DNA of 64,000 nt from an uncultured Clostridia bacterium. Lineage in GTDB: Bacteria > Bacillota > Clostridia > TANB77 > CAG-508. Below the pieces are notes generated by a model, which was not told where the DNA came from, searched no databases, and saw nothing but the letters and a program-made list of their open reading frames with translations. The translations under genes and the position numbers were made by a program. The stretch lies in NCBI GenBank assembly GCA_947626555.1, contig CANQSP010000001.1:42-64041 (forward strand). The letters are read 5' to 3'. Shown here piece after piece: positions 6,723-62,989 of the stretch. The stretch's first letter is position 1, and each line of letters opens with the position of its first letter.

Positions 6723-6724
6723 TA

Positions 6725-6989
6725 AACTATTAGGGACGGGGTTAAATAGTTTAGTGGTAATAATTTTAACTATAAAAGCAAAACATTAATATATTATTTA
6801 TTTAGTAACATTTTGTGGGGACCAGCAAATTATAGCTTGTAAAAAAATTTATTTTGTAAAACTTGTTTTGCATAAATAAATTTTTAAACAAGCTATTATG
6901 TAGCTGGGAGTTACTAAATAAATAATATATTCACGTTTTGCAATAGAGTAATTAAACCACTAAACTATTTAACCCCGTCCCTAATAGTT
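6725..6989. mobile_element. MITE-like element copy A (family 1, single TIR pair), flanked by TA/TA
   Basis: Perfect terminal inverted repeats AACTATTAGGGACGGGGTTAAATAGTTTAGTG ... CACTAAACTATTTAACCCCGTCCCTAATAGTT; palindromic interior; no ORF. Confidence 0.8.
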
Positions 6990-7009
6990 TAATATTTTTA
7001 AAATAAGTA

Positions 7010-7038
7010 TTGACAAAACAAAAATTCGCATATATAAT
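7010..7038 (+). promoter_or_regulatory. sigma-A-type promoter for recN (TTGACA-17 nt-TATAAT)
   Basis: Perfect -35 (7010-7015) and -10 (7033-7038) hexamers with 17-nt spacer. Confidence 0.6.
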
Positions 7039-7088
7039 ACTAACATAGCAAACAAATATTTGCAGAAAATATTTTCGGAGGTATGTAT

Positions 7089-8717
7089 ATGATAACAACA
7101 ATAAATATTAAAAATATAGGTATTATAGATAGTTTAAGTATAGACTTAAATCAAGGTTTTAATGTTTTAACAGGTGAAACAGGAGCTGGAAAAACATTAA
7201 TAATAGATTCTCTTGGAATAATATCAGGTGGGAGATTTTCAAAAGAAATGATAAGAAAAGGTGAAAACCATTCATATATAGAGGCATGTATATATTTGCC
7301 AGAAAATGAATTATCTATAGATGGAAATATTATAGTATCAAGGGAAATATATGCAAATGGAAGAAATATGTGCAAAATAAATGGAAGATTAGTAACTGTA
7401 AATGAATTAAAAGAGTTTATGAAAAAAGTAATAGATATACATGGTCAAAATGATAATCAAACTTTGTTAGATAAAAATTCACATATTGCTTATTTAGATA
7501 GTTTCATTGGCGAAAAAGTAAAAAAGTTAAAGAATAATTATAGAGAATTATTCAATAGATATCAAGAAATACAAAATCTCTTAAAATTGAATTATGGAGA
7601 CGATAAAGAAAAACAAAGAAGATTAGATTTATTACGTTATCAATTCAATGAAATAGAAATTGCAAATTTAAAAGTAGGAGAAGATGAAAAGTTAGAAGAG
7701 CAAAGGAAGTTTATATTAAACTCAGAAAAGATAGCTGAAAATTTGGATATTTCTGACAATGCATTAAGTAATGGAGCAATAGATGGAATAAATGAAGCTA
7801 TTAAAGCATTAGAAAAAATAGAAACAATAGATGAAAAATATTCTCAAAAATTATCAGAATTAAAAAGTTCATATTATGAAATACAAGAAATTTCAAGAGA
7901 TATAAATAGTATGAAAGAAGACGTATATTTTGATGAAGAAGAAAGGAATGAAATAGAAACAAGGTTAGATTTAATATTTTCTTTAAAAAGAAAATATGGA
8001 AATAGTGTTGAAGAAATATTAGCATATAAAGATGAATTAGAAAAAGAAATAGAGCAAATAGAGAACATTGATGAGTATAATAATAAATTAAAAAAAGAGT
8101 TGAAAGAATTACAAAGTCAAATGGCGGAATTGGCAATGGAAATGGATAAAATTAGAAAAATATTTGCTAAAGATTTATCAGAAAAAATAAATAATGAACT
8201 TCAAGATTTAGAAATGAGAAATGCAAAATTTAATTGTAAAATAGACTTCAATGAAAACAATGAGTTTAATAAAAATGGGTTAAATAATGTTGAATTTTTA
8301 ATTGCTACAAATGTAGGAGATGAAGAAAAGCCACTAATAAAAATAGCTTCTGGAGGGGAAATGTCAAGGATAATGTTAGCAATTAAATCTGTATTATCAG
8401 ATGTAGATAAAGTACCTGTTTTAGTATTTGACGAAATAGATACAGGAATTAGTGGTAAAGCTGCTAAAGCAGTAGGAAGTAAAATAAAAAATATTGCTAA
8501 AAATCATCAAGTGCTATGTGTTACTCATTTAGCAAGTATTGCTGCAAAGGGAGATTATAATTATTTCATTAGCAAAAAGGTAGAAGGAAATACGACAAAA
8601 ACGCAAGTAAAACAATTAAATGAAAAAGAAATAATCGAAGAAATAGCAAGAATTGCCAGTGGAGATATTACAGAGGTTACAATAGAACATGCTATGGAAC
8701 TAAGAAAGTTAGCCTAA
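7089..8717 (+). CDS. recN: DNA repair protein RecN (SMC-like ATPase)
   Basis: N-term NVLTGETGAGKTLIIDSLG Walker A, coiled coil, C-term SGGEMSRIMLAIK signature / VLVFDEIDTGISG Walker B; ATG 7089 fits GGAGG spacing (ORF track start 7083). Confidence 0.85.
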   Translation: MITTINIKNIGIIDSLSIDLNQGFNVLTGETGAGKTLIIDSLGIISGGRFSKEMIRKGENHSYIEACIYLPENELSIDGNIIVSREIYANGRNMCKINGRLVTVNELKEFMKKVIDIHGQNDNQTLLDKNSHIAYLDSFIGEKVKKLKNNYRELFNRYQEIQNLLKLNYGDDKEKQRRLDLLRYQFNEIEIANLKVGEDEKLEEQRKFILNSEKIAENLDISDNALSNGAIDGINEAIKALEKIETIDEKYSQKLSELKSSYYEIQEISRDINSMKEDVYFDEEERNEIETRLDLIFSLKRKYGNSVEEILAYKDELEKEIEQIENIDEYNNKLKKELKELQSQMAELAMEMDKIRKIFAKDLSEKINNELQDLEMRNAKFNCKIDFNENNEFNKNGLNNVEFLIATNVGDEEKPLIKIASGGEMSRIMLAIKSVLSDVDKVPVLVFDEIDTGISGKAAKAVGSKIKNIAKNHQVLCVTHLASIAAKGDYNYFISKKVEGNTTKTQVKQLNEKEIIEEIARIASGDITEVTIEHAMELRKLA

Positions 8718-8981
8718 ACTATTAGGGACGGGGTTAAATAGTTTAGTGAATTGAATACTCTATTGCAAAACATTAATATATTATTTATTTAGTAACATTT
8801 TGTGGGAACTAGCAAATTATAGCTTGTAAAAAATTTATTTTGTAAAACTTGTTTTGCATAAATAAATTTTTTTTACAAGCTATTATGTAGTTGGGAGTTA
8901 CTAAATAAATAATATATTAATGTTTTGCTTTTATAGTTAAAATTATTTCCACTAAACTATTTAACCCCGTCCCTAATAGTT
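8718..8981. mobile_element. MITE-like element copy B (family 1), TA-flanked; its first bases complete the recN TAA stop
   Basis: Same TIRs as copy A; interior ~95% identical to A but with outer sub-segments swapped. Confidence 0.8.
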
Positions 8982-8997
8982 TAGTGATGTAAAAGAC

Positions 8998-9026
8998 TTG
9001 ATATATATGTAAAAAAATGGTATAAT
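8998..9026 (+). promoter_or_regulatory. promoter of the GC-rich island gene (TTGATA-17-TGgTATAAT, extended -10)
   Basis: -35 8998-9003, TG 9018-9019, -10 9021-9026; followed by GCACGC-N13-GCGTGC inverted repeat (9054-9079). Confidence 0.5.
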
Positions 9027-9094
9027 TATTATGTAATCTACAAAAAATAAAATAGCACGCCAATATAATTATAGCGTGCGGAAGGAGAAAACGG

Positions 9095-10270: not shown

Positions 10271-10290
10271 TACTCTGAGGTACAAGGCTT

Positions 10291-14637: not shown

Positions 14638-17600
14638 ATGATGGAGAATATGAAAAAAATAACATTTTTTTTAATTACTATGATTCTATCTTTAGCTGTT
14701 GCAACAAGTGTAAATGCAGTAGAAAATATAGAATTAAAAACTTCTAAAGATAAAGTAAATTTAGGAGAAGAAATTATAGTTTCATTAGACTTAAATATAG
14801 AAAATAAAGAGGAAACATCTTTATATGCTTATACTGCGAAGTTAAGTTATGATAAGGATGTTTTTGAAGTAATTGATGAATCTGATTTTGAAGAAAGTGA
14901 AAATTGGTCTGATATTACTTACAATAAAAGGAATAACAAATTTGCATTGATTAATAAAAAAGGAGAGACCGACGAAAGTATTTTAAAAATCAAGCTAAAA
15001 GTTAGAAAAAATGCTACCCCTGGAAATACTTCTATTACTGTAAATAGTATTACTGCATCAGATGGAAAAAAAGACATACCAATAGAAGGCAAAACAGTTG
15101 ATGTTATGGTAATAAAAACTGGGCTAGCAGAAGGTGAAAGCATTCCGTTAAATAAAACAAATGAAGTTGTAGAAGATACATCCAATATTGAAGTGGGAAA
15201 AGATTTCTCATGGATTGCTTATATACTTATAGCCTTAATAATTGTTATATTCATATTCACAATCTATTATTATATAAGTAGTAAAAAAAGAAATACTTCA
15301 AAAAATAAGAGAATCACAATTATGGTAGCATCTATTATAATTTTAGTTATTTTATTAATTACTACGATAATTCTGTTAACTGATAAAAAAGCAGATGTTA
15401 ATAAAGACGGTAAAGTTGATTATGATGATACAAAAGATATAATAGAATATTTGTTAGAAATAAAAAATCCACAAGAAGATGAAAATTTAAGTGATAAAGA
15501 TATAAACAAAGATGGACAGATTACAATAGGGGATGTTGCAGCATCTACTAATCAAGCAACAAATCAAGACTATCATGCTAATGTAAATGGCTCAAATAAT
15601 AACAGTAATACTAATGGAAGCACTAATAATCAAAGTAGTGAAGCTAATGCGAGCAAGCCAAATAACCCAAGTAATTCAACTAATCCAAGCGAACCAAGTA
15701 ATCCAAACGAACCAAGTAACCCAAGTGGTTCAACTAATCCAAATGAACCAAGTAATCCAACCAATCCAACCGAGCCAAGTAATCCAGCCAATCCAAACGA
15801 ACCGGACAATCCAGATAATCCAAACATCCCAAGTGAACCAACTAAGCCAGATAATCCTAATACCCCAAGTGACCCAACTAAACCAGATAATCCAAACACT
15901 CCAAGTGAACCTACTAAACCAGAAGAGCAATACTCATCAGTTGTAGAAACTACAACAGTAAGTAACCTTACTCCAAAGAAAGGTCAAGAAATAACATTAG
16001 ATTTATATATTGATGTAACACCATATACTGAAATTGAAGCTATTGAAATAGAAGGAAAATCGTATAAAGTAACAAAGGTTGAAGAACCTTCTGTAAGAAT
16101 AGCAAGTCTTGTACCAGTGAAATTTAAAGCAATTGCATCAAACATAAACGGAGGAGAAAATAATCATTATAAGGTAACAATACAAGCACCAACATCAGCA
16201 GGGGTACAGGATATACATATTACAAAAATAGAATTAGATAATGGAAAGAAAGTAAGTATAGACTATAGTGTTAAAGTAGATGTATTAAAAGATGCACCTA
16301 AAGTAAATGATTTTTATATTGATGATAAAAATGAGATTCCAGAAATAAGTTTTAACATTGAAGATTCAGATGGTGCTTTTAAAGGTGGAAAATTTAGTAT
16401 TACTGATGTAGATGGCAATGTTGTTTTTGTGTCAGAGAATATAAAAGTAGGTAAAAATACATTTAGTGCAAACTTAGAGGATGGAAAAACTTATCATTAT
16501 GATTTAGTAGCTGATTATGACTTAGACCATGATTATTTTGCTGAGAATATTGCGCCAAATCATAGAGAAGAAAAAGATTTTATAGATGATATTATTGAAG
16601 ATGAAGAAGGAAATCTTGAATTTACGAGAGAATATAATTTCTTAAGTAAAAATATGATGATAACTCCAGAAGTATCTAGTGAAGATGAACTAATACTTTC
16701 ATTTGAAAATGGTGCAGAATCATATTATAAAGTAACTTATGTAAAAGTAAATGGAGTAGAATATGAAGTTAAATTAGAAAATGGAAAATATATAACCAAA
16801 TTAAAGAAAGGAAGCAAAGGAAACAATACAATAACAGTAGAATCTGTTAAACTTGAAAATGGACATATTTTTACAGTTAATCAAACTTTTAGCTATGTAT
16901 ATTTAAAAGATAAACCAACAATAGGAGATATAGAAGTTAAATTAGAAGAAGGTAATTTGCATGTAAGTGCTCCTATAACGGACCAAGATAATACAATAAA
17001 AAGTGTTCAAGTTAAAATTAAAGACCAAAATGGAAATGTAATTAAAACAGAGAAATTAAATAAAAATTCAAATAATGGTTTATATTTGAATGATATAGAA
17101 ATAGATGTATCTGGAAAATATACAGTAGAAGTAGAAGTAACCTATGATTTAGGAAATGGAAAAGAAAATAAAGTAAGTAAAATATATGCTAAAAATATTA
17201 CTGAACCAATAAAGGCAACTATTTTAAAAGAACAATCTAGTATGGCTGAATATGCTACTAGAGGGAAAAAAGTAGAAGCAATTTATACTATAGAAGATAA
17301 TACAGAAAAAGAAGTAACCCATATAACCATAAATGGAGTAAAAATACCTGCAACTAAGTTAAGCGATGAAAAATATAAAGTAGAATTTTTAGCACCTAGT
17401 GAAAGACCACAAAATGGTAAAACTACAATAATAGCATCAGAATTATATTATAAAGATGAAGTAGAGCCAATAGAAGTAGAATGTGCATTTGAAATTGAAA
17501 TATTAAAATCTGTACCTACTATTGAAGATTTGCATATAAATGATTCAAGAGAAAAGCCAGAAATAAATTTTGTGCTTGTTGATGCTGAAAATGCCTTTAT

Positions 17601-20600
17601 AAGTGGAAAAATAATTATTACAGATGAGAATGAAAATAAAGTTACAGAAATAGAAATGTCTTTAATTGATACAGAAAATGGAATACAAACATATACCTTA
17701 GACAATATAGAGCAGGGTAAAGGCTATGAAATATCAATAGAAGCAACATACGATTTAGATATAGATAGAACAAATAATAAAAATGAAGAAACCAAAATAA
17801 TTAAAACTCATAAATTTAAAATTGAAAAAGATTATGAATTTACATTAAGTGATTTTAAATTTATAAACATAGAAAATGAAAAAGTAACTTTACAATTTAC
17901 AAGCACCAATAAAACAGAATATATTATTGAAAAAGTTGAAATAGAATTAAACGGAATTAGACATGAATATAAAGTTATAAAAAACGGAGATAATTATACA
18001 ATAGAAATTCCATTAACTGATATAAATAATACAAGAACAGAATTGACACTAGAAGAAGTTATATTAAGTAATTTAAAAGAATTTAACAGAGAAACGGATT
18101 TTGAATTATTTAGTAGCTTAGAAAAACAAGTAATATTTAAAAACAAGCCTACGGCAACAATAGGAAATGTTATAGTAAATGAAGAAGAAACACAGATAAT
18201 TGTAAGCAATATTAGTATAGAAGATACAGATAATGCATTACTTTCAGATAAACTTACAGTACAACTAAGAGATATAAATGGTACAGTTGTGGATAGTAAA
18301 AATATTAGTAGAACTGATACAGCAGTAACATTTGATTATAATAAAGCAGGAGACTACAAAGTAGTCATAGTTGCAGATTATGATATTGTTGACTTACAAA
18401 ATCATACAAATGAAGAGATTGCACAATCATCTATTATAACAATACATATAAAAGCAGAAATTATTAACAGCGAATTTAATAAATATCCAAACAAGAAAGA
18501 GCAAATGACAATAAAATACACAATAAAAGACAACACAAATAAAGATGTAACAGCAATTTATTTTAATGATATAAGGGTTGATGCAGTAAAACTAGGAGAA
18601 GATTTATATGAAGTAGTATACATTGCTCCAACAGAACATGGAAAGAAGTCAATTACTGCTAGTGAATTATATTATGGTGAAGAAGAAGTAGATGTAGTTG
18701 ATAAGAATGATGAAATAGATGTATTAAAAGATAAGCCAATAATTTCTAATTTTAAAGTTGTTACAGCAGGAGATAAGCCTAAGGCAACATTCGATATTAT
18801 AGATACTGATAATTCTTTTGTAGACGGAAAAATTATTATTAAAAATAAGGCTAATGATTCAATTAAAGAAGTTATAATTGTAAAAAATGATACAGGAATT
18901 ATAACAGAATATGAACTAGAAATTGATTCATTTGAACAATATGAAGTTAAATTACAAATAAATTATGATTTAGACTCTAATATTTTACCTTCACAAGGAG
19001 AAAATGATAATGTAGGAATACTTGAACAAGTTATAGAAATTGTTGAAGATATACAACCTTCTAAATTACAAATAAATGACTTAAAACTAAAAGAGGTAAA
19101 TGAAGAACAAGAAACAATAACACTAGAATTTACAAGCAAAAATCCATCTAAACATCATATAGCAAAAGTTAAGTTAGAGGGAAAAGAAGAAGAATTCTAT
19201 GTAACATATGATGAAGCAAGCGATACATATACATTAGTTTTACCATATAATAATGGAGAAAAAGAAACAATAACAATAGAAAAAGTTATTTTGGATAATG
19301 ATACACAAGATGAAGTAATTCTAGAGGAAAAAGCAAGTATCGAATTATTTAAAACAAAGCCTACAGTTCAAGAATTACGAGCTACTTATAATAAAGAAAC
19401 CAAAGTTATAAGTGCAACATTACTTATTAAGGATACGGATAATATAGTTACTAAGGCTTATGCTAAAGTTATTTGTCCAGATGGCGAAGAAAAGACTCAA
19501 GAAGAAGTTACATTAGAAAATAAATCAGGAGAGGTAACATTTGAAAATATAACTAAGGCTGGAACATATAAAGTTGAAATATTAGCAGACTTTAATGCAT
19601 TAGATGGAAAAATACATAATTCCGAAACTCTTGAATTAGAAGATAATGTAACAGATGAAGTATATGTTGAGATAAAAGTTAATGCAGTTTCTACAATAGA
19701 ACTTTCTAATAAGTATCCAGAAAAAGGTGGAACTGTTCAAGTAACATACAACATTGAAGACAATACAGATGAAAAAATAACAGCTATAGAGTATGGTGCA
19801 ACACATATAGCAAATAATCTTGAAGAGATAGACGGAAATTATAAAGCTATTCTTGGAGAGGAATTTACAGCTCAAGCAGGTGTAAGTACACTAAAAATAA
19901 CAAAAATACATTATGGAGATAAAATAATAGATGTAACACATGAGGGTGACAAGATAGATGTTTTAAAAGAAAAAATTTCATTTAATGAAAATACATTTAC
20001 TTCTACAGAAAATTTAGAAAAATCAACTGTTGCATTTACATTTGATATTATAAACCCTGATAATGCAATTATAGATGGAACAGCTTCTGTAGGAGAAAGT
20101 ATACAGAATTTTTCAAAAGCTCAGAATACATTAATATTTAATGTGGAAAAAAATAAAACATTAGAATTATTAATTAAAGTAAATTATGACAGAGATACAA
20201 ACACAATAGTTGAAGATGAAAATAAAAATGTTGAAACGTTAACAGTTGTAAAAGAATTTTCTTTAGATGAAGATATGGAATTTGATATAACGGATATATA
20301 CACAAGTAAAGTAAATACTGAAACATTACAAGAAACAAACACACAATACTTTAATAAAGGAGAAGAATTTAGAGTAAACTTTAAAACTGCTACAAATTCA
20401 GCACTTAAAGTATCCTACGTAACAATTGGTGGAACGAAATATAATGCACAAGAAATAAATAGTGAAGCAAACATAGAAGAAGTTGAAGGATACTATGCAA
20501 TTGTTAAAGCATCAGAAAGTGAAAAAGGAGTAAAAGAATTAAACATAGATTCTGTTACTTTATCAGATGGAAAAGTTATAACACTTGAAAATAAAAACTT

Positions 20601-23600
20601 AAAATATGAAATATTAAAAGATAAGCCTATTATAAATACATTTAATGTAAGCAATATAGGAACAGATGTCAATATTTTAGTAGATGTACTAGATCCAGAT
20701 GATGCATTAAAAGAGACGGCAAAAGTCACAATAACAGACAATTCAAATGGAGAAGAATTATTTAATAGCCCAATTATAAAAGGTACAAATCATTATGAAT
20801 ATAAAGCAGAACTTAATAAAGAATATTTAATTAAAGTTATAAATGGATATGACTTGGATTCAAATGAACTAAATGTTGGAAGTGAAAACTTAAATGTATA
20901 TGAAGAACTATATACACAACAACTTTTAAAAATAGAGGATACGGCTAAATTTTCAGCAGTTCATGTAACAGTACCAAGTATTGTAACAGATGATGATGAA
21001 AACGTAATACTAACTTTTGAAAATGTATACCAATCAATTTATGATGTTAAAGAAGCTACTATAAATGGAATTCCATATACAGTCACAAAAGAAGATAATG
21101 TATACAAAGTAGTTTTAGAAAAAGGAGAAAAAGGTGACAATATATTAAAATTTACATCAGTAAAGCTTTCAAATGATTCTGTATTTGAAGTTAATAGAAA
21201 TATAAAATATTTATATGAAAATGTAAGACCAATAGCTGAAAATATAGAAATAAATGAAGTTCGTAGTGAAGATATGGTAAAAGCTACATTTACAGTTAAT
21301 GATAAAGATGAAGCAACTGAAAAACTATATGCAAGGTTATACAATAGTAATGGAGTTCAAATAGAAGAAACTGAATTAGACAAAAATGCTACAGAAGTTA
21401 GTTTCTCATTGCCAAAAGCATATAAATATAGTATTGATATTTTAGCTGATTATGATAAAGGTAATGGAACAAATTATGAAAAAATTGTAATTGGTTCTAA
21501 AGTTCACGAAGTTGGACCGGTTGTAGAAATAACTGAATTTAAAACAGAAGATAAAAAATTCTTTGAAAAAGATGAAGAAAACGTAAAACTTATATATAAA
21601 ATAAATACAAATATAGATGAGAATGTAAGACTATTTAGAATAAATGGAGTAACATATGATGCAGAAAAAATAGATACGGATACTTATAGAGTGTTATTTG
21701 ATGGTGTTGGAAATCAAGGAGGAACTTTAACTTTAGAAGTACAACAGATTGTATTTGAGAAGACAATGCATAAATTAGAAAACTATTATAAGTCAACTAT
21801 TGAAGTCTTGAGGCAAAAGCCAGAAGTTTCACAGGTAATAGCCGAAAATAAAGATGGCAAATTCGAACTATCATTTAAAATGAAAGATGATGATGAGGCT
21901 CTAACAGGAAACATTAATTTAAGAATACTAGACGAAGAAGAACAAGTTTATTTAGAAGAAAATATACAATTAAATGATAAACAATATAATAAAATTATAG
22001 ATAATTTACAATTTAATAAGGATTACAAGATAATTATAACTGCAAATTATGACTTAGATGGTGATTTAACAGGTAATGGTAATGAATATACAGGTGAGCA
22101 ACTTTTAGAACAAACAATTAAGGTTGAAAATAATATAGAGTACAACTTTAAATTTAGTGATTTTGGACTTATGACTCCAGATATGCCATTAGCATGGCCA
22201 GGATATCCATTATATTTACAATTTATAAGTACAAACGATTCTCAATATAAAGTAGACTCAATTGTTTTAAATGGAGTAGGATATAAAGTTGAAGAAATGT
22301 ATGGATTATATATGATATCAGAATATATTCCTGAAATAAAAAGTGGTATTCAAGAAGTTAAAGCAGAAAAAGTAATATTAAGTAATGGTAAAGCTTTTGA
22401 TATAAATGGTGAGGAAAATAAAGCTAAATTTGAAGTATTAAGAGATTATCCTAAGGCTAGTATTTTATCAATGACAGAAGATACAGAAAGAGGAAAACTA
22501 AAGATTGTATTTCAAATTCGAGATGATTTTAATACAATTAAGGATCCTACAGATATTAAAGTTTTAATATATAGTAGTGACTCAGATGAACCATATCAAA
22601 CCAAAAAAATCTCTATAGGTGATACAGAAGTTGAACTTGATACACCATTAGCCTCTGAATATGTTATAGAATTTTTAGCTGATGCTACAGTTTCAGAATT
22701 GATGCCTGAATATAACCAATTAAACTCTAAATTAGTTGAAAAAACATTTGAAGCTAAACAAAGTACTGTTATTACAGAAGTAAAACCAGAGACATATTAT
22801 CCTGAAAAAGGTGCAATTTTTGGAGTAAATTATAAGATTTTAACATTAAGTAAGAAAAAGGTAGTTGCAATAACTATAAATGGACAGAGAAGTATAGTTG
22901 ATGAAAATGGTACAAATACTTATAAAGCATGTCTTTCAGCAAATAATGAAGCAGGTTTAATGACATTTACAACATCTACAATAGAATTTGAAGATGGGTC
23001 AACAGTTGATTTTAAAGCAAGTGACCAAGTAGAAGTAATAAAAGAATTACCAATAATTACAAATCTTACAAGAACAGATAATTTTGATGAAAAATCTGCA
23101 ACATTTACATTTAATGTAGAAGATCCTGATGGAATAATAAATGAAGGTGGAACATTTAAAGGAAGTATTAATGGGCAAAATAAAGATTTAAATATTGGTG
23201 AGAATTCTATGACATTTACAAATCTAACGCCTAATGCCAATATAGAGTTCAATGTTATTGGTACTTATGATTTAGATACAAATGCATTAAATAGTGTTAC
23301 AGGAAAGAATGATAATAATCATATAGGAGATAAAATCTTTACAAGACAATTCTTATTTACTGAAAATAATGACTTATATAGAGTTACAAAACTAGAAACA
23401 CAAAAAAATAATAAACAAAATACTTATTTTGAAAAGGATGATGAAATAAGACTAAAATTTAACTTTATTTGGGTAGATGACACATATGTAGAAAAAGCAA
23501 AAGTTAACGGAGAAACTTATGATGCTTACAAAAATGGCGAAGATTATACTATTGTTTTAAATAAAATGACCGATGTAGGAATACATGAAATTAAATTAGA

Positions 23601-43858: not shown

Positions 43859-44497
43859 ATGGATATTATAAAATCAATAGAACATGAACAATTAAAAAAT
43901 AAAATTCCTGACCTTCATGTAGGTGATACTGTTAGAGTACACCAAAAAATAAAAGAAGGAAACAGAGAAAGAATACAAGTATTTGAAGGAATAATAATAA
44001 AGAAACAAAATGGGGGAGTTAATGCTACATTTACTGTAAGAAGAATATCTTATGGTGTAGGTGTAGAAAAAACATTCTTAATTCATTCACCATTAGTAGA
44101 AAAAGTTGAATTAGTTAGAGTTGGAAAATCTAGAAGAGCAAAATTATATTATTTAAGAGATAGAGTTGGAAAGTCTGCTAAGACTAGAGAAAATTTAGCA
44201 GCTAGAATAGAAGACAAAGAAATAACTGTTAAAGAAGATTTAGTAGAAGAAGTTCCAGAAGAGACAACTGTAGAAACTAAGAATGATGCTACAGAAAGTG
44301 CTAAAAGTGAAACTACTGCAAAAGAGAGTACTGAAGTTAAAGAAGCTACTAAAGTGGAAGAAAAAGTTGAAGTTAAGGAAGATGCAAAAGTAGAATCAGC
44401 TCCAGAAGAAGCTCCAGCAGTTAAAACAGAAAAACCAGTAGAACAAGAAGTTGTAGATACAGTTAAAGAAGAAAAAGTAGATGAAGTAAAAGATTAG
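43859..44497 (+). CDS. rplS: 50S ribosomal protein L19 with ~100-aa acidic K/E/T-rich C-terminal extension
   Basis: Residues 1-115 canonical L19 ([25 protein letters not shown]...), then low-complexity tail [24 protein letters not shown]...VDEVKD in same ORF. Confidence 0.88.
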
Positions 44498-44507
44498 AAT
44501 TCGAAGG

Positions 44508-44546
44508 CAAATAAACCTAAATTGAATTTGGGTTTATTTGCTTTTT
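44508..44546 (+). terminator. rho-independent terminator after rplS
   Basis: GCAAATAAACC-loop-GGGTTTATTTGC + TTTTT. Confidence 0.8.
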
Positions 44547-44584
44547 GATTATTAAAATTACAAAGGAAAATGGAGGAGTATAAA

Positions 44585-45505: not shown

Positions 45506-45546
45506 AAATATATACTAAATAAATTTATTTAAAATACTTTTTAACA

Positions 45547-45590
45547 AAAAATAGAGAATATTTTACTATTAATAAAATGTTCTCTATTTT
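45547..45590. terminator. bidirectional terminator between convergent genes
   Basis: AAATAGAGAA-loop-TTCTCTATTT flanked by A/T runs. Confidence 0.6.
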
Positions 45591-45613
45591 TAACTTTTTT
45601 GTATAAAAAATAC

Positions 45614-47995
45614 TTATTTTGACAATTCTGCGTATTTTTTTAATTTTTCATAGACTAAATTATTGATACTTCCAGCAGGGAATTTTCCTTTTGAGTCTTT
45701 TTTTCCACCAGGAACACCTGTTAAAATTTCAATTCCTTCATCTATGTTAGAAATAGGGTATATATGGAATTTGTTTTCTTTAACTGCATTAAGTACTTCA
45801 TCTGATAGAGTTAAATTTTTTACATTCTGGATAGGTATCATAACTCCATGTGAACCATCTAAGCCTCTTAATTTGCAAATTTGGAAGAAACCTTCTATTT
45901 TATCATTTACACCACCAATAGGTTGAATTTCACCTTTTTGATTTACAGAACCAGTAACAGCAATAGATTGATTAATTGGAATTCCTGAAAGACTAGAAAG
46001 TAGGGCATAAAGCTCAGTACTAGAAGCACTATCACCATCTACACCATTGTATAGTTGTTCAAAGCATATACTAGCTGTAAGAGATAAAGGAATGTCTTGC
46101 GCAAATTTTTCTCCTAAATATGCACTTAATATAAATACACCTTTTGTATGAGAAGAACCAGAAAGTTCTACTTCACGTTCTATATTTATAATTCCATTTT
46201 TACCTGTATAAGTATTGGCTGTAATTTTTACAGGTTTACCAAATGTATAATCTCCAATAGTCATAATAGTTAAGCCATTAATTTGTCCTACTTTAAATCC
46301 AGAAGTATCTATTAAAAGAGTATTATCTTGTATCATTTCCAAATATTTGGCATCATATTTTTTTATTCTTTCGATTCTTTCTTTTAAAGCTTTATCTACA
46401 TATTCTGCAGATACTACTTTTTTCTTATCCATTAAAGCCCATGTTCCAGATTCACCTACTACTTCTGCTAAATCGTTAAATCTAGTAGACAATTTTGTTC
46501 TATCCTCAGATAATCTACTTGCGTATTCAACAATTTTTGCAACTGCTGTTTTATCTAAAGGTGGAAGATCTTCTTGTTTGCAAAAACCACATATAAATCT
46601 AGCGAGTTTTACTTTATTTTCAGTAGTATTTGGAGCATCATCTTCAAATTCTACTTTAATTTTAAATAATTTCTTAAAATCATTATCCATAGCAAGAAGT
46701 GTTTGATATATAGCTTCACTTCCAATTAAAATAACTTTTAAGTCTAAAGGAATAGGTTCAGGTTTTAATGAAACCATTACCATAGAGCTACGTTGGTCTG
46801 CTGTATTTTCAATTGCAATTTCTTTTACACGTAAAGCTTTTTTTAAAGCATCATAACAAATACCATTTGAAAGCAAATCATTTGCTTGGAAAATAATATA
46901 ACCACCGTTTGCATTTTGCATAAGTCCTGGTTTTAGCATAGTATGGTCAGTTTTTAAAGCACCATAATAATTCTCATATTCTAATTTTCCAAATATATTG
47001 TGATAAGAATAATTAGAATCCATAATTACAGGAGCACCTTGTAAATTACTATTATCTACAAATAAATTAACTCGATAATTTAACCAAGGTTTTGGCATTT
47101 CAGGTCTTGGTGCAGATGCTTGTTGATGTTTAATATTATCATCTCTATTAATGAATAAAGGAATATTTTTTAAAATATCTTGCTTTATATCATTTAAAAA
47201 TTTATTAATTTTTTTATTTCTTTTATATTTAGATTTTATATAGTTTATGTGTGTATTAACTGTAAGAAGAGCAATATTTGATTGCCAATCATCAATTCTT
47301 TTATCAGATGCTCTTTCAATTTCTTTAATTTTGCTAATAACCTCAATAATTTGCTGTTGAACAATATTAGATTTTTCCTCAAAATCCTTTTTTACGTCTT
47401 CATCTAATTTATCAAATTCATCTTCTTCAATGGTTTTTCCATCTATAACAGGCATCATGTAAATACCATTTTGAGCAGATTTTACCTGAAAACCATATTT
47501 TAAAGAGTCTAAATTTAATTTTTCAAGTAAAGAAGCACGTTTAGCTTCAAATTCTTGCTTGATTATACTTTTTTCTTTCTCAAAGTCATCATTATTAAAA
47601 GTTTTAGTAATATCTGTACGGATTTCTTTTATAAAAGTATCCATAGTTTCTTTAAATTCTTTACCTTGACCAGCAGGGAAAGAAACAGCAATAGGTTCAT
47701 TCGGATTGTCAAAATTATATATATAACACCAATCTGAAGGAACTTTTTTCTTTTTTGATAGTTCATCTAAATAATTTTTTGCATACATGGTTTTACCAAC
47801 ACCGCTAGGACCTTCCATATATATGTTATATCCTTTAACATTAACATTAACACCAAAATCTAATGCCTTAATACCTCTATCTTGACCTATACCTGTACTA
47901 ATAGGTTCTAATTCAGAGGTATCTTTAAAATCAAATATATCAGGGTCACATACGACCTTTAAATCCTTATAAGATAGTTCATTTCCTTTTTTCAT
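45614..47995 (-). CDS. Lon-like ATP-dependent protease (AAA+ module + S16 peptidase domain; LonC-type)
   Basis: GPSGVGKT Walker A; C-terminal DGDSASSTELYALLS...GGVNDKIEG Ser-Lys dyad region. Confidence 0.75.
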   Translation of the reverse strand: MKKGNELSYKDLKVVCDPDIFDFKDTSELEPISTGIGQDRGIKALDFGVNVNVKGYNIYMEGPSGVGKTMYAKNYLDELSKKKKVPSDWCYIYNFDNPNEPIAVSFPAGQGKEFKETMDTFIKEIRTDITKTFNNDDFEKEKSIIKQEFEAKRASLLEKLNLDSLKYGFQVKSAQNGIYMMPVIDGKTIEEDEFDKLDEDVKKDFEEKSNIVQQQIIEVISKIKEIERASDKRIDDWQSNIALLTVNTHINYIKSKYKRNKKINKFLNDIKQDILKNIPLFINRDDNIKHQQASAPRPEMPKPWLNYRVNLFVDNSNLQGAPVIMDSNYSYHNIFGKLEYENYYGALKTDHTMLKPGLMQNANGGYIIFQANDLLSNGICYDALKKALRVKEIAIENTADQRSSMVMVSLKPEPIPLDLKVILIGSEAIYQTLLAMDNDFKKLFKIKVEFEDDAPNTTENKVKLARFICGFCKQEDLPPLDKTAVAKIVEYASRLSEDRTKLSTRFNDLAEVVGESGTWALMDKKKVVSAEYVDKALKERIERIKKYDAKYLEMIQDNTLLIDTSGFKVGQINGLTIMTIGDYTFGKPVKITANTYTGKNGIINIEREVELSGSSHTKGVFILSAYLGEKFAQDIPLSLTASICFEQLYNGVDGDSASSTELYALLSSLSGIPINQSIAVTGSVNQKGEIQPIGGVNDKIEGFFQICKLRGLDGSHGVMIPIQNVKNLTLSDEVLNAVKENKFHIYPISNIDEGIEILTGVPGGKKDSKGKFPAGSINNLVYEKLKKYAELSK

Positions 47996-48608: not shown

Positions 48609-48672
48609 AGTTAATTTTTAACCCCCGTCCCAAATTGTCCCATTTGTCTCAATTGGGGACAGTCCCCAATTG

Positions 48673-52728: not shown

Positions 52729-53994
52729 ATGAAAGACTATTTAGGAATAGAAGACGTTAAGGCTATGGAGGTATTTGATTCAAGAGGAAATCCTACGGTT
52801 CAAGTAGAGGTAGTAACAGAAGGAGGATTTTCAGGTGTAGCAATAGTTCCATCAGGAGCATCAACAGGAAGTTTCGAAGCTATGGAATTAAGAGATGGTG
52901 ATGAAAGATTAAATGGAAAAGGAGTTCAAGTTGCAGTAAATAATGTAAATAAAAAAATAGCAAAGGCACTAAAAAAAATGAATGTGTATGAGCAAAGTAG
53001 AATAGACAGAATTTTAATAGATTTAGATGGAACGGAGAATAAAGAAAAATTAGGAGCAAATGCAATACTTGGAGCATCAATAGCTGTTGCAAAAGCAGCA
53101 GCAAATTCTTTAGGAATGAGCTTGTATAAATATTTAGGTGGAACAAATGCTAAAATATTACCTACCCCAATGATGAATATATTAAATGGGGGAAAACATT
53201 CAGATAATAACATAAGCATTCAAGAATTTATGATTATGCCTGTTAGTGGCAAAACTTTTAGAGAAAAGTTAGAAATGGGAGTAGAAGTTTATCATACTCT
53301 AAAGAAGATTTTAAAAGAAAAAGGATATAGTACAGCGGTTGGAGATGAAGGGGGTTTTGCACCAAACTTAGAAGGAGAAGAACAAGCGATAGAATTGTTA
53401 GTGGAAGCAATAGAAAAGTCAGGTTTTATTCCTAAAGATGACATTGCTATAAGTTTAGATATAGCAAGTACAGAAATGTATGATGAAGCAAAAAAAATAG
53501 GAAAAGATGGATATTACTTTTGGAAAAAAGATATCTTTAAAACAAAGGAAGAAATGATAGATTATATAGTAAATTTGACAGAAAAATATCCAATAATTTC
53601 AATAGAAGATGCTTTAGCAGAAGAAGATTGGGAATCATGGAAAATATTAACAGAAAGAATAGGAAACAAAATTCAATTAGTTGGTGATGATTTATTTGTT
53701 ACAAATACAAATAGATTACAAAAAGGAATAAATAATAAAGTAGCAAATAGTATATTAATAAAACCAAATCAAATTGGAACAATAACGGAAACATTAGATA
53801 CGATAGAGTTAGCAAAGAAAAATGGTTATACAACAGTAATATCTCATAGGTCAGGAGAGACTGAAGATACAACAATAGCCGATGTTGCAGTAGCTGTAAA
53901 TAGTGGTCAAATAAAGACAGGTGCTCCGTGTAGAACAGATAGAGTGGCTAAATATAACAGATTGCTAAATATTGAAGCAGAGCTAAACTATTAG
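52729..53994 (+). CDS. eno: enolase
   Basis: [15 protein letters not shown]..., SHRSGETED; stop TAG lies inside MITE copy C TIR. Confidence 0.95.
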
Positions 53995-54314
53995 GGACGG
54001 GGTTAAATAGTTTAGTACAACTATTAATTTATAAAGAGTTAAACTATTAGGGACGGAGTTAAATAGTTTAACAACTTAATTGTTATATAGCAAAACATTA
54101 ATATTATATATTTTGAAGTGATTCGTGGGGACCGTTTTAGAAAATGTTACGAACATGTGTGAGTTACATTTTCTTAAATGGGGCAACGCAAAAATATATA
54201 ATATTAAGGTTTTGCAAGTAATATGATTTAAATTTTGTTAAACTATTTAACTCCGTCCCTAATAGTTTAATTAAAAAATAAGTGCTAAACTATTTAACCC
54301 CGTCCCTAATAGTT
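53986..54314. mobile_element. MITE-like element copy C (family 2: nested, double TIRs), TA-flanked
   Basis: Outer TIR AACTATTAGGGACGGGGTTAAATAGTTTAG + inner TA-flanked element with TIR AACTATTAGGGACGGAGTTAAATAGTTTAAC; palindromic core with GTGGGGACC. Confidence 0.8.
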
Positions 54315-59073: not shown

Positions 59074-59778
59074 ATGAGAAAAAAAATAAAACAGAATTTT
59101 AAGAAAAATTTGAGATGTATAATAATATTAATTATGTTATTTGTAATGTTTATATCTTATAATGTATTTTTTAGAAATGACGAGATATATGCTCTTTCTA
59201 AATATGGTTCAAGAGGGTCAGAAGTAACACAAATACAAACAAAACTTAAAAGATGGGGGTATTATTCTGGAAGTATAGATGGAATATATGGAAGTAAAAC
59301 ACTAGAAGCTGTAAAATATTTTCAAAGAAAAAATGGTCTCACAGCAGACGGAATAGCTGGAACAAAAACGCTACAAGCAATGGGTATATATACATCATCT
59401 AATACAAGTTCTTCATCAAGTACAAACTCAAGTAATTTAAATTTGTTAGCAAGATTAGTGTATGGAGAATCAAGAGGAGAACCATACTCAGGTCAAGTTG
59501 CAGTAGCAGCGGTTGTATTAAATAGAGTGAAAAGTTCAAATTTTCCTAATACAATTTCAGGTGTAATATATCAATCAGGTGCTTTTGATGCTGTATCAGA
59601 TGGACAAATAAATTTGTCACCAAATAGTACAGCTATAAAAGCAGCTCAGGATGCTATAAATGGTTGGGATCCATCTTATGGAGCAATTTATTACTTTAAT
59701 CCAGCAACAGCCACCAACAAATGGATTTGGTCAAGACCTGCAACTGTAACAATAGGCAGACATAGATTTTGCAAGTAA
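59074..59778 (+). CDS. sleB: spore cortex-lytic enzyme SleB-like (signal/TM + PG_binding_1 + Hydrolase_2)
   Basis: YGSRGSEVTQIQTKLKRWGYYSGSIDGIYGSKTLEAVKYFQRKNGLTADG (PG-binding), ARLVYGESRGEPYSGQVAVAAVVLNRV (SleB domain); stop TAA shared with MITE D end. Confidence 0.8.
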   Translation: MRKKIKQNFKKNLRCIIILIMLFVMFISYNVFFRNDEIYALSKYGSRGSEVTQIQTKLKRWGYYSGSIDGIYGSKTLEAVKYFQRKNGLTADGIAGTKTLQAMGIYTSSNTSSSSSTNSSNLNLLARLVYGESRGEPYSGQVAVAAVVLNRVKSSNFPNTISGVIYQSGAFDAVSDGQINLSPNSTAIKAAQDAINGWDPSYGAIYYFNPATATNKWIWSRPATVTIGRHRFCK

Positions 59779-60106
59779 ACTATTAGGGACGGGGTTAAAT
59801 AGTTTAGCACAATTAGTAATTTATAAAGAGTTAAACTATTAGGGACGGAGTTAAATAGTTTAACAAAATTTAAACTATATTACATGCAAAACATTAATAT
59901 TATATATTTTTGCGTTGACCCATTTAAGAAAATGTAACTCACATATGTTCGTAACATTTTCTAAAACGGTCCCCACGAATCACTTAAAAATATATAATAT
60001 TAATGTTTTGCTATGTAACAATTAAGTTGTTAAACTATTTAACTCCGTCCCTAATAGTTTAATTAAAAAATAAGTGCTAAACTATTTAACCCCGTCCCTA
60101 ATAGTT
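59778..60106. mobile_element. MITE-like element copy D (family 2, nested); inner segment inverted relative to copies C and E
   Basis: Outer TIRs/spacers co-linear with C, inner ~260 bp is reverse complement of C interior. Confidence 0.8.
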
Positions 60107-60170
60107 TAGTTGACAAAGCAGTACATAAATGATAAAATGAAACGGAATTTAAGAATAGTTGGAGGGCTAA

Positions 60171-60671: not shown

Positions 60672-60689
60672 AGAAAAGGAAGGAAAAAG

Positions 60690-61442
60690 ATGTATATAAA
60701 TGAAATAAATATATTATACTATGTTCTTTTTGGTATAATAGGATTGTTTGTAGGACAATTTATAGATTGGTGTGATATACGTTTAGCGGAATATAAAAAA
60801 GTATTTTCAAAAGAATTTTTTACAGAATATAGGAAAATATTTAAGCCAAAATACATATTAATGTTTTCGACTGCTATAATATACATAGTTCTGTTATATT
60901 TATTTGGTAATAAAGAAGGAATTCTATATAAAATTGAATTTATAAAATATTTATTATTAACTCCTATGCTTATTTGTGCATTAGTAGTAGATTTAAAATA
61001 TCAAATTATACCGAATAGGCTAAATTTAACTTTACTTGAAGTAGGATTAGCTACTACATTTATACAGGGAATTTTGGATATAAATATAGCAATAAATATG
61101 CTACTAGGAGCTATTATTGGTGCTGGAGTTTTTTTGGCAATTACTGCAATAGGAGGTTTAATTGCTGGAAAGGAAGCAATGGGCTTTGGTGATATTAAAC
61201 TAATGGGGGCATTAGGATTATTTTTCGGATGGTTGAATATATTAGTAATTTCATTAATAGCTTTCTTATTAGGAGCAATAATAAGTATAATTTTATTAAT
61301 ATCAAGAAAAAAGAAAAAGGATGAATATATTGCCTTTGGACCGTTTATAGTAATTGCAACGTTTATAGTAATAATAGTACCTAATGAATTATTAATAAGT
61401 CTTTTATTGAAAATATTTACACTTGGAATGATAAATGCATAG
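60690..61442 (+). CDS. prepilin (type IV leader) peptidase, A24 family
   Basis: Polytopic membrane protein with GFGDIKL catalytic Asp region. Confidence 0.7.
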   Translation: MYINEINILYYVLFGIIGLFVGQFIDWCDIRLAEYKKVFSKEFFTEYRKIFKPKYILMFSTAIIYIVLLYLFGNKEGILYKIEFIKYLLLTPMLICALVVDLKYQIIPNRLNLTLLEVGLATTFIQGILDINIAINMLLGAIIGAGVFLAITAIGGLIAGKEAMGFGDIKLMGALGLFFGWLNILVISLIAFLLGAIISIILLISRKKKKDEYIAFGPFIVIATFIVIIVPNELLISLLLKIFTLGMINA

Positions 61443-61498
61443 TAGAAACATGAAAATATACACGTAGATATAATGAAAAGATGAAAGAAGGTGTTGTA

Positions 61499-62575
61499 AT
61501 GAATCCAAACATAAAGTGGTTAAGAGAAAAGATGAAATTATTAGATATGCAAGGAGCAATAATTTCAAATCCAGTAAATATAAGATATTTAACAGGAATA
61601 GTTGCAGAGGGAATATTGTTAATAACTAGAAAGGAAAATATATATTTAACGGATGGGCGTTATACAGAAGCTGTAAATAGTGTGCTAACAGTAGATGATG
61701 AAATTATAGTACATGAATTTAAAGATTTTTCAAATGATGAATATGAAAATTTCTTTCTTTTTTGTGAAAACGTAGGATTTGAAGGCGATTATGTGACATA
61801 TAATGGTTATAGAAACTTTATGCAAAGATATAAAATAAATAATCTTCAAGAGATGGAAAAAGTAATAGAAAAGCAAAGAATGATAAAAGATTCTGAAGAA
61901 ATAGAAAAAATAACAAAGGCTTGTGAAATTACAGACGAATGTTTTAAACATTTATTAGATTTTATAAAAATTGGAAAAACAGAAAAAGAAATTGCTATAG
62001 AAATAGAAACATATTTTAAAACTCATGGAGCAGATGGAGTATCATTTGATCCTATAGTAGCTTCAGGTAAAAATTCATCAAAACCGCATGCAGTACCTAC
62101 AGATAAAAGGATAGATTTAGGAGATGTAATAACAATAGATATGGGGTGCAAATATGAAGGTTATTGTTCAGATATGACAAGAACAATATTTGCAGGTTAT
62201 ATTCCAGAAGAAACCAAAAAAATCTATGATTTAGTATTAGATAATCAATTAAAAGTACAAGAAGAATTAAAAGAAGGAGCAAATGTTAAGACACTTACTA
62301 AAATGGTGGAAAGTTCATTTGAAGAAAACAATTATTCTTTAGTACATAGTTTAGGACATGGAGTAGGATTAGATATACATGAATATCCTTATTTAGCAAA
62401 TAAAAATGATTTTTTATTAAAAGATAAAATGGTGGTAACAAATGAACCAGGAATATATATACCAGAAAACTTTGGAGTTAGAATAGAAGATACTGTTTTA
62501 ATTACAAAAAATGGTTGTATAAATTTAACCAAATCAGACAAAAATTATATTATAGTAGATAAACAGCTAAACTAA
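61499..62575 (+). CDS. Xaa-Pro aminopeptidase / M24B family peptidase
   Basis: HSLGHGVGLDIHE, NEPGIY, RIEDTV metal ligands; ATG 61499 after AAGAAGGTG; stop TAA completed by MITE E. Confidence 0.85.
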   Translation: MNPNIKWLREKMKLLDMQGAIISNPVNIRYLTGIVAEGILLITRKENIYLTDGRYTEAVNSVLTVDDEIIVHEFKDFSNDEYENFFLFCENVGFEGDYVTYNGYRNFMQRYKINNLQEMEKVIEKQRMIKDSEEIEKITKACEITDECFKHLLDFIKIGKTEKEIAIEIETYFKTHGADGVSFDPIVASGKNSSKPHAVPTDKRIDLGDVITIDMGCKYEGYCSDMTRTIFAGYIPEETKKIYDLVLDNQLKVQEELKEGANVKTLTKMVESSFEENNYSLVHSLGHGVGLDIHEYPYLANKNDFLLKDKMVVTNEPGIYIPENFGVRIEDTVLITKNGCINLTKSDKNYIIVDKQLN

Positions 62576-62904
62576 TAGGGACGGGGTTAAATAGTTTAGC
62601 ACTTATTTTTAAGTTAAACTAATAGGGACGGAGTTAAATAGTTTAACAACTTAATTGTCATATAGCAAAACATTAATATTATATATTTTTAAGTAGTTCG
62701 TGAGGACCGTTTTAGAAAATGTTACAGACATGTGTGAGTTACATTTTCTTAAATGGGGCAACGCAAAAATATATAATATTCATGTTTTGCAAATAGTATA
62801 AATAAAATTTTGTTAAACTATTTAACTCCGTCCCTATTAGTTTAATTGTTACTTTATAAATTACGAATCGTGCTAAACTATTTAACCCCGTCCCTATTAG
62901 TTTA
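62570..62904. mobile_element. MITE-like element copy E (family 2, nested); all four TIR copies carry the CTAATAGG variant
   Basis: Left AACTAATAGGGACGG / right CCGTCCCTATTAGTT and inner TIRs share the same TATT->TAAT change. Confidence 0.8.
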
Positions 62905-62989
62905 AGTTATACTATTGATTTTTAACTATAAATGTGGTATTATGTATAAGATTAAATAAGATATGAAATAAAGAAAGGGGAATTAAATT

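Follow-up and report, generated by a model that had tools for sequence, protein, structure and literature searches.

The REPIN populations described to date are mostly proteobacterial. IS200/IS605 elements are autonomous and multicopy, have asymmetric ends, and insert 3' of a fixed target of 4 to 5 nt. Abundant REPs occur only with RAYT groups 2 and 3, mainly in Enterobacteria and Pseudomonas, and Group 1 RAYTs have been noted in Clostridia without large repeat populations (PMC5581495). Compensatory changes are reported to be common in REPINs (PMC3116915), and REP termini often give a TAG stop codon to the flanking ORFs (Di Nocera 2013, PMC3733652). Firmicutes are absent from the phyla listed for REPs tagged with GTAG or CGTC; the same work describes TIRtrons/TIRYTs, which are tyrosine-transposase genes with long TIRs, and their moderately abundant repeat families, often dimers (PMC3733652). 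In addition, some TA-duplicating bacterial MITEs are fused to the 3' ends of genes (PMC2759123).

Here, we analyzed a 64,000-nucleotide stretch of a contig from an uncultured Clostridia bacterium (the window), in which an earlier note had described five copies of a MITE-like family. Our analysis indicates that these elements are probably REPIN-like doublets, with two inverted REP-type stem-loops around a palindromic spacer, and that a single-copy, vertically inherited RAYT (Y1/HUH) most likely mobilizes them in trans.

Elements in the window

A 27-nt terminal repeat, AACTATTAGGGACGGGGTTAAATAGTT, has 16 matches at up to 3 mismatches in the window and none in 100 shuffled versions; the five copies are thus real. 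Two of their boundaries had to be shifted: copy 2 starts at 8717 rather than 8718, and copy 5 ends at 62902 rather than 62904, where the TA flank had been included. The perfect ~30-bp TIRs of the earlier note are inverted terminal repeats, each of which is itself a stem-loop. In the three long copies (copies 3, 4, and 5; 329 to 333 bp), a nested arrangement of an outer repeat pair, GGGACGGGG, and an inner pair, GGGACGGAG, had been missed. The identities of the genes beside the copies were confirmed by Pfam, and Rfam, at its gathering threshold, gave no match to an RNA family at the elements.

Copy 1 (6725 to 6989, 265 bp; like the other copies, without assigned strand) is an un-nested long palindrome bordered by TA at 6723-6724 and at 6990-6991. 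The element is located ~100 bp past rplQ (L17), downstream of the terminator-like hairpin of rplQ, and a 12/12 promoter-like site for recN follows after 20 bp. As single-stranded DNA, copy 1 folds into a near-perfect hairpin (-84 kcal/mol, z -16.9), and an L17 look-up found its site likewise occupied in other samples. Copy 2 (8717 to 8981, 265 bp) follows the recN-like gene, whose stop TAA (8715-8717) is composed of the flank TA and the first A of the element; the pre-insertion stop was reconstructed as TAG (gcc TAg tga). The orthologous site in locus L076 is occupied too, by 227 bp.

Copy 3 (53986 to 54314, 329 bp) is nested, with outer REP units at 53986-54012 and 54288-54314 and an inner element at 54042-54267, and its RNA folds into a near-perfect hairpin (z -22). 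The insertion point is a codon, cTA, two codons ahead of the enolase stop. The present stop of enolase, TAG (53992-53994), lies within the repeat, two codons in and not one as noted earlier. According to our reconstruction, the insertion probably altered the enolase C terminus from ...ELAK to ...ELNY; the length fits, and the C termini of relatives are too variable for proof. In copy 4 (59778 to 60106, 329 bp), the inner element (59834-60059) forms a core that is inverted with respect to that of copy 3. The flank TA and the A of copy 4 form the stop TAA (59776-59778) of a SleB-like hydrolase, the ancestral stop of which was TAG, abutting the -35 of the next gene (TTGACA, 60110).

Copy 5 (62570 to 62902, 333 bp) has an inner element at 62617-62842 and an outer shell that is inverted with respect to copies 3 and 4, and all four of its REP units carry an AACTAAT variant. 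The stop TAA of the M24 peptidase (62573-62575) lies within the repeat, one codon in; in relatives without the element, the stop (TAA) directly follows the same Gln. An ancestral M24 C terminus ...QLSYTIDF was considered and dropped: relatives end in ...VDKQ with TAA at the same TA, and the window lineage has an extra C. The earlier statement that TA plus the first A of the element forms the stop codon in four of the five cases therefore holds literally for two, the recN-like and SleB-like genes (both TAA), the eno and M24 stops being located inside the repeat. On the minus strand at 48612 to 48650, in the gap between GNAT and TsaB-like genes, ACAATTTGGGACGGGGGTTAAAAATT carries the loop motif and may be a degenerate solo hairpin; its membership in the family is uncertain.

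Doublets of a REP-type stem-loop

Related rabbit-gut Clostridia MAGs are full of the same repeat family. Our family sample comprised the window and at least 79 eight-kb stretches from three MAGs (~630 kb). At least 111 unique doublets were counted in the window and the loci listed, and the flanking repeat is highly over-represented in extragenic space. The REP unit is a 31-nt stem-loop (TAAACTATT, loop AGGGACGGGGTTA, AATAGTTTA) with a 10-bp stem and a 13-nt loop (z -4.3 versus shuffles), and the loop of every terminal repeat reads GGGACGGRG. The feet of the hairpin read CTAAAC... and ...GTTTAG; the unpaired tetranucleotide GTAG or CGTC is absent from the foot, and the conserved motif sits in the loop.

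Among the matches listed, 224 of 254 are paired into inverted doublets. These fall into size classes of about 64, 100, 220, 265, and 330 bp, and the length of the palindromic spacer varies from 0 to about 200 bp. The arms of a copy share variants (0.18 mismatches inside one element versus 2.28 between elements). Spacers are unrelated between subfamilies, and the REP ends alone are conserved.

Insertion signature

As the earlier note had stated, TA is present on both sides of all five window copies, and this extends to 108 of the 109 unique elements with both flanks readable in the window and the loci listed. The target consensus is RY-TA-RY, mostly GCTAGC, GTTAAC, or ATTAAT; among the matches listed, TTAA (39) and CTAG (37) are the commonest core targets. 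The orthologous site of copy 1 in L076 is empty and contains a single TA. Likewise, un-nested homologues of a nested shell have a single TA where the inner element sits. The description of a non-autonomous, MITE-like palindromic family fits these data. TA on both flanks with a single TA at the two empty or un-nested sites may reflect a TA duplication, and a TA-ended element inserting beside a TA would look just the same. A junction-spanning search for empty sites in the window and the 79 loci listed gave one clean case, and an EF-P look-up returned just one short contig, broken at the element.

Presence and absence with a clean single-TA empty site, together with nested insertions at TA, indicate insertion events. 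Four of the five window sites are occupied also in genomes that are just 85-93% identical. Because architecture differs between orthologous occupied sites, where a core has been inverted in situ, some of the spread or remodeling may be recombinational and not transpositional.

Concentration at stop codons

Our analysis bears out the reported concentration of insertions at stop codons, often with the third base of TAA supplied by the element. Among the matches listed, the insertion lies in an ancestral stop codon at 18 of 61 independent sites (~25-fold enriched; binomial p of about 2e-10 against a null of 4.6%, derived from RYTARY sites outside CDS interiors). The last ten codons hold 12 of the 61 sites (~11-fold enriched) and the 30 nt past the stop hold 11 (~6-fold enriched), and positions 31-150 nt past it are depleted. 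TA and the A of the element now form TAA at 23 of the 61 sites; at 9 further sites the repeat brings a stop in its first 9 nt, and just four read through. The insertions leave host genes essentially intact, as had been proposed. The rplS stop codon is occupied in L002 and empty in the window; a strain-specific 311-aa ORF beside it (44570-45505), considered as a transposase, was rejected as it has no Pfam match.

The preferred target includes TAR, so that an in-frame target would be a stop codon. The element end, TA-AAC-TAT-TAG, would recreate a stop immediately in one reading frame and no more than two codons later in another, and insertions in or just before the stop would be nearly harmless because of this quick restoration. 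In this compact genome, promoters also often abut stop codons. The pile-up may reflect both targeting and selection. It is conceivable, but rather doubtful, that a RAYT-driven REPIN population actively homes to stop codons by integration into ORF-terminal YTAR palindromes, at their TA, with an apparent TA duplication and with termini that evolved to rebuild the stop.

The sharp peak at gene 3' ends could alternatively reflect structural repeats under host selection that act as terminators, stabilizers, or RNA hairpins at 3' ends and spread mainly by recombination or gene conversion. Such repeats would account for the very stable predicted RNA hairpins, the window sites shared with 85-93% identical genomes (four of five), and the in situ remodeling and core inversion at orthologous sites. 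Nevertheless, we consider this explanation improbable. The element end, ...AATAGTTTA, has neither a T-run nor a short G+C-rich stem, and a terminator scan revealed no terminator-like site within or beside the five elements, which argues against the terminator role suggested for them earlier. Host selection also fits poorly with the clean single-TA empty site, with nested insertions at TA, and with spacers that are unrelated among subfamilies that keep only the REP ends.

A candidate RAYT gene

The sole coding unit bounded by the repeats in ~630 kb is located in L052 (4806-5936, 1131 bp) and encodes a Y1/HUH protein. The length of this protein, 252-255 aa, exceeds that of Escherichia coli TnpA-REP by about 90 aa. 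The L052 protein is Y1_Tnp by Pfam (E 1.8e-13), and its top NCBIfam model is REP_Tyr_transpos with 66.6 bits (curated cut-off, 80), compared with 25 for the IS200 model. A phmmer search of the PDB with the single protein gave no match, and a profile of 30 homologues was required; this profile matched 4ER8 (E. coli TnpA-REP) at E 2.8e-6 versus 0.18 for ISDra2. With the AF2 model (pLDDT 84), the best Foldseek match was again 4ER8 (TM 0.70 by 4ER8 length and 0.47 by query). TnpA-REP is a better match than IS608, ISDra2, and IS200 in both sequence and predicted fold, and on these grounds the associated transposase appears to fall in the RAYT clade and not in IS200/IS605. Its invariant residues are HUH (H60, H62) and Y121-I-H-x-N-P.

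The gene had one tblastn match among all loci listed, the genomes being fragmented MAGs. The gene order fhs-RAYT-groES-groEL is kept at 85% and 53% identity. The RAYT gene is flanked by inverted copies of the same repeat also in L080-L083, and by variant hairpins in L084-L088 and 18 metagenome loci. At 21 homologous loci, the inverted flanking hairpins keep GGGACGGRG and their stems differ (mean contiguous stem, 7.3 bp versus 2.8 bp when shuffled).

An apparent 2-bp TA duplication with a palindromic target is typical of classic DDE (IS630/Tc1) transposition and counts against the involvement of a RAYT; the target of IS630 is CTAG, with TA duplication. IS200/IS605-type enzymes are not known to leave a duplication, and no report of a target duplication for REPINs was found in the REPIN literature examined. 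Following the affiliation given in the earlier note, the elements would be MITEs derived from an IS630/Tc1-mariner IS, the DDE transposase of which makes a staggered cut at TA (CTAG or TTAA) and thereby duplicates it. The TA flanks (108 of 109 among the matches listed), the single TA at two empty or un-nested sites, the predominance of TTAA (39) and CTAG (37), and the perfect terminal inverted repeats agree with such an origin. We still hold it to be very unlikely, since repeat pairs more than 340 bp apart enclose nothing but the Y1/HUH gene in ~630 kb. Judged by repeat spacing, neither a DDE transposase bounded by AACTATTAGGGACGGGG repeats nor, more generally, a cognate IS630/Tc1 transposase with matching TIRs was found in the ~630 kb of loci listed, although a multicopy DDE element could be lost in assembly because many contigs of these fragmented MAGs terminate in the repeat. 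Furthermore, a TIR bound by a DDE enzyme does not explain why the loop motif of the repeat flanks RAYT homologues at 21 unrelated loci with covarying stems, and concerted variation of both arms is unexpected for DDE MITEs.

Least probable of all are conventional IS200/IS605-derived palindrome-associated elements (PATEs), for which the mobilizing enzyme would be a standard multicopy TnpA(Y1) with insertion 3' of a fixed target of 4 or 5 nt: the associated protein does have the Y1_Tnp fold and HUH/Tyr motifs, and the ends are hairpins, but the Y1 gene is single-copy among the loci listed and syntenic across lineages to 53% identity, its product is closer to TnpA-REP than to IS608, ISDra2, and IS200 (sequence and fold), and the doublets are symmetric, with identical inverted ends in place of asymmetric LE/RE.

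We therefore favor REPIN-like doublets with the RAYT as a candidate mobilizer acting on single strands. The enzyme would recognize the GGGACGGRG loop on the folded single strand and cut at TA, at the foot of the hairpin; the element would then integrate at the TA inside a short palindrome (RY-TA-RY), with TA left on both sides. Binding and cleavage of the single-stranded REP by the RAYT are predicted.

Implications

Our findings bear on how RAYTs move REPINs and where insertion occurs. This lineage offers what is probably a REPIN population of Gram-positive Clostridia that is dense and looks young, and the signature of insertion can be read unusually well from the TA flanks, the RY-TA-RY target, and the nesting. 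In hundreds of RAYT relatives, the GGGACGGRG loop is conserved and the stems covary. Loop motif and insertion signature are concrete substrates for biochemistry. At almost no cost, a mobile element can sit in core-gene stop codons (recN, eno, rplS, and fhs), a point to be considered in gene calling and in the interpretation of 3'-end variation in MAGs. Should active homing be true, RAYT-mediated REPIN insertion would for the first time have a clear signature at target site and junction, and a widespread Firmicute RAYT clade would read a GGGACGGRG hairpin loop.

Comparison with known systems

With IS200/IS605 elements (IS608 and ISDra2), the system shares the HUH/Y1 catalytic fold and hairpin ends of the kind recognized on single strands; it differs in its identical inverted ends and in a partner gene that is single-copy among the loci listed and syntenic. 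RU/ERIC-type enterobacterial repeats (Delihas 2007, PMC2759123) and IS630-derived MITEs which show TA target duplication, resemble the elements in small size, TIRs, stable stem-loops, terminal TA, and what in the present elements is an apparent TA duplication. However, those repeats are not tied to a Y1/HUH gene, whereas the terminal repeat of the present elements is the hairpin that also flanks the RAYT, and a DDE partner was not found in the loci listed. Compared with GTAG/CGTC-tagged REPs, the elements have no foot tag, and the stop is usually a TAA formed from the flank TA and A. REP ends that supply stop codons have been described before; the novelty here is the Clostridial system with its loop motif and TA signature.

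The closest likeness is to REPIN-RAYT systems (PMC2817692, PMC3116915, PMC5581495), which also have short palindromic units in inverted doublets that form long hairpins, compensatory arm symmetry, many extragenic copies, and one vertically inherited Y1/HUH gene flanked by inverted copies of the same unit, 4ER8 being the best structural match. In contrast to those systems, the host is a low-G+C Clostridia lineage, the loop itself carries the conserved recognition motif (GGGACGGRG), and a protein of about 250 aa has an extra helical C-terminal region. The doublets here are nested (+ + - -) and as long as 330 bp, their TA/TA flanks are clear, and the target is RY-TA-RY.

Repeat elements in the window

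Five copies of the repeat element are present in the window, at 6725-6989 (copy 1), 8717-8981 (copy 2), 53986-54314 (copy 3), 59778-60106 (copy 4), and 62570-62902 (copy 5), and they occupy 2.4% of it. They are bounded by the repeat AACTATTAGGGACGGGG and have TA on both flanks, and their 27-nt terminal repeat has 16 matches in the window at up to 3 mismatches versus 0 in 100 shuffles. The long copies (3, 4, and 5) are nested, with an outer repeat pair GGGACGGGG around a second pair GGGACGGAG, and the orientations of shell and core vary independently among them. Each terminal repeat is itself a stem-loop, CTAAACTATT-[AGGGACGGGGTTA]-AATAGTTTAG. Outside the five elements, GGGACGG occurs twice more in the window, at 48612-48650 (-) and at 37921 (+); the intergenic one, at about 48626, has only a weak stem and could be what is left of a solo unit after decay. 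The Rfam “skipping-rope” sRNA motif (RF02924), which is unconnected with the elements, lies at 33581-33662 (+), with 74.7 bits, well over the gathering score. A single ORF of 4525 aa, encoding a giant protein, occupies 14638-28215 (+) in an otherwise compact region.

A family of mobile elements with a TA-centered target

When one genome per species was scanned for the exact pattern, at least 79 eight-kb stretches matched, and all stretches among the matches listed lie in three rabbit-gut “uncultured Clostridia” MAGs. The window is 85 to 93% identical to these MAGs and thus derives from a related species. Among the matches listed, the repeats pair into 111 unique doublets (size classes of about 64, 100, 220, 265, and 330 bp), which outnumber singlets and 28 of which sit inside another doublet. 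TA is found on both sides in 108 of the 109 listed elements with both flanks readable, and removal of one TA leaves, among these matches, the target RY-TA-RY (GCTAGC, 18; GTTAAC, 14; ATTAAT, 12), with TTAA (39) and CTAG (37) as cores.

Unoccupied sites bear out the earlier proposal of a mobile, MITE-like family. In the related locus L076, the copy 1 site is empty and shows a single TA. Likewise, a nested shell minus the inner element and one TA aligns over its full length with 107-bp doublets that are not nested, in which a single TA stands where the inner element would sit. Relatives with identities of 85% and 78% have no element in the M24-efp spacer, and their stop TAA is at the corresponding TA. 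The rplS stop TAG, free in the window (44495-45633), carries an element exactly on it in L002 (5121-5370), a related MAG. The 311-aa ORF that follows rplS in the window is missing from L002 and had no match in a Pfam search. The TA flanks could represent a true 2-bp duplication or an element ending in TA that inserted beside a TA, which the sequence alone cannot separate.

The repeats bound a RAYT-like gene

The earlier note had assigned the family to IS630/Tc1. However, the sole repeat pair more than 340 bp apart among the matches listed (L052, another related locus, 4806-5936, 1131 bp) encodes a Y1/HUH protein (255 aa in the listed ORF, 252 aa in database entry P0001). It matches Pfam Y1_Tnp, and its best NCBIfam model is the REP-associated tyrosine transposase (RAYT), at 66.6 bits, which is below the cutoff of 80 (IS200, 25). 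A profile of 30 homologues gave an E value of 2.8e-6 against Escherichia coli TnpA-REP (4ER8) versus 0.18 against ISDra2. The top Foldseek match of the AlphaFold model (pLDDT 84) was 4ER8, with a TM score of 0.70 normalized to the length of 4ER8, followed by IS608, ISDra2, and IS200 at about 0.55. The HUH and Y-I-H-x-N-P motifs are invariant.

The RAYT gene was found once among the loci in the matches listed. It has fhs on one side and groES-groEL on the other in homologues at 85% identity and also in those at 53%, which come from human-gut samples, and in these and 18 further loci inverted hairpins stand on both flanks. GGGACGGRG is retained in their loops, but the stems are wholly different (e.g., AAGATGATTTT, TGCCAAAA, and TGAACACTT), with a mean contiguous stem of 7.3 bp versus 2.8 in shuffles; in each of the three lineages, the left hairpin of the RAYT unit adjoins the stop codon of fhs. 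Within the repeat family, doublet arms share private variants (0.18 mismatches within versus 2.28 between elements). Taken together, gene identity, synteny, and loop-conserving, covarying hairpins are the signature of a REP-RAYT unit and not of a DDE transposon. The family is most likely RAYT/REPIN-like rather than IS630, whereas its description as mobile, TA-flanked, and stop associated stands.

Related hairpins occur elsewhere. A solo REP hairpin lies between groES and groEL (L052, 6440-6465; L080, 4506-4538; L084, 4298-4325), at the same place in lineages with RAYTs only 53% identical, and a CIRCE-like inverted repeat, TTAGCAGTC-N9-GACTGCTAA, is found upstream of groES. The loop motif is also present in L177 (about 60-95), from a relative that lacks the repeat expansion; there a hairpin specific to that lineage (ggaaattttaagCCCCGTCCCtaaaatttcc) carries it upstream of a HAD gene, in the intergenic region that holds copy 4 in the window. 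Tight +/- loop-motif doublets are present in the RAYT-homologue loci L171 (4850-4886, 6395-6431, and 10058-10094) and L172 (4922-4966), near the RAYT-homologue gene and kilobases away. These two loci are from bioreactor and other metagenomes (33 to 40% G+C), and their doublets may represent independent small REPIN-like expansions in other Firmicutes.

Association with stop codons

It had been proposed that the flanking TA plus the element's first A forms the stop codon of the upstream gene. In the window this holds for the recN-like (TAA, 8715-8717, copy 2) and SleB-like (TAA, 59776-59778, copy 4) genes, whereas the enolase (TAG, 53992-53994, copy 3) and M24 peptidase (TAA, 62573-62575, copy 5) stops lie within the repeat, the latter because copy 5 has AACTAAT instead of AACTATT. 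Pfam matches confirm all four gene identities.

For the wider family, elements were excised in silico, long ORFs were called, and the 81 unique outer elements among the matches listed were reduced to 61 independent, orthology-clustered sites, which were compared with RYTARY motifs at the same distance from a stop. Among these listed matches, the element lies in the ancestral stop codon at 18 of 61 sites (about 25-fold enrichment; binomial p of about 2e-10 against a 4.6% null), in the last ten codons at 12 (about 11-fold), 1 to 30 nt after the stop at 11 (about 6-fold), and 31 to 150 nt after it at 3 (about 0.45-fold), so that the association itself is upheld. The working TAA is TA plus the element's A at 23 of the 61 listed sites. 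Nine more sites have the stop inside the repeat's first 9 nt, and at only four does the ORF continue into the element.

Three features can explain the peak, with no weighting possible among them. (i) The preferred target contains TAR, which in frame can only be a stop. (ii) Two of the three reading frames regain a stop from the element end, TA-AAC-TAT-TAG. (iii) Spacers in this compact genome are short (median, 90 bp), with promoter-like boxes a few bases past several stops. Strong sigma-70-like boxes at 7010-7038 (12/12), 8998-9026 (11/12), and 60110-60138 (11/12) begin about 4 to 20 nt to the right of copies 1, 2, and 4 (TTGACA 4 nt past copy 4; the 12/12 site 20 nt past copy 1). Copies 2 and 4 are wedged between a stop codon and the next promoter, and copy 1 lies between a 3' UTR and a promoter.

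A terminator role, also suggested earlier, is unsupported: the terminator scan found no intrinsic-terminator-like site in or at the five elements, which have no T-run, and a separate hairpin with a T-run lies upstream of copy 1. As RNA, the elements are predicted to fold into very long and stable hairpins, which may influence mRNA decay or translation.

Possible remodeling in situ

Orthologous sites in three genomes differ in architecture: some are nested and others single, and the core may be deleted or inverted. At the M24 site of three species (window, 62570-62902; L012, 2738-2964; L016, 4296-4521), nesting and core orientation differ while the site-specific variant AACTAAT/ATTAGTT is common to all REP units, which suggests in-situ remodeling or gene conversion. 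AACTAAT is commoner where TA forms codon positions 2 and 3 (5/9 versus 8/52 insertions among the matches listed), and there it creates a TAA one codon earlier.

Comparison with known systems

REP and REPIN-RAYT systems have been described in detail (PMC2817692, PMC3116915, PMC5581495). GTAG REP termini often supply the TAG stop of neighboring ORFs (Di Nocera et al., PMC3733652), and Firmicutes are not included among the phyla given there. The same study describes genes for tyrosine transposases with long TIRs on their flanks, which can give rise to repeat families of moderate abundance, often in dimeric form. Group 1 RAYTs are recorded in Clostridia, with abundant REPs only for groups 2 and 3 (Bertels 2017, PMC5581495); we found no published description of a clostridial REPIN population. 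As in REPINs (Bertels and Rainey 2011, PMC3116915), arms share private variants and doublets prevail over singlets. In contrast to the described systems, the recognition motif is borne in the loop, without a GTAG or CGTC tag; the RAYT has about 250 aa and an additional C-terminal region that is helical; doublets are nested, up to 333 bp; and the TA/RY-TA-RY signature is clear. The system matters mainly as a tractable case for RAYT target choice.
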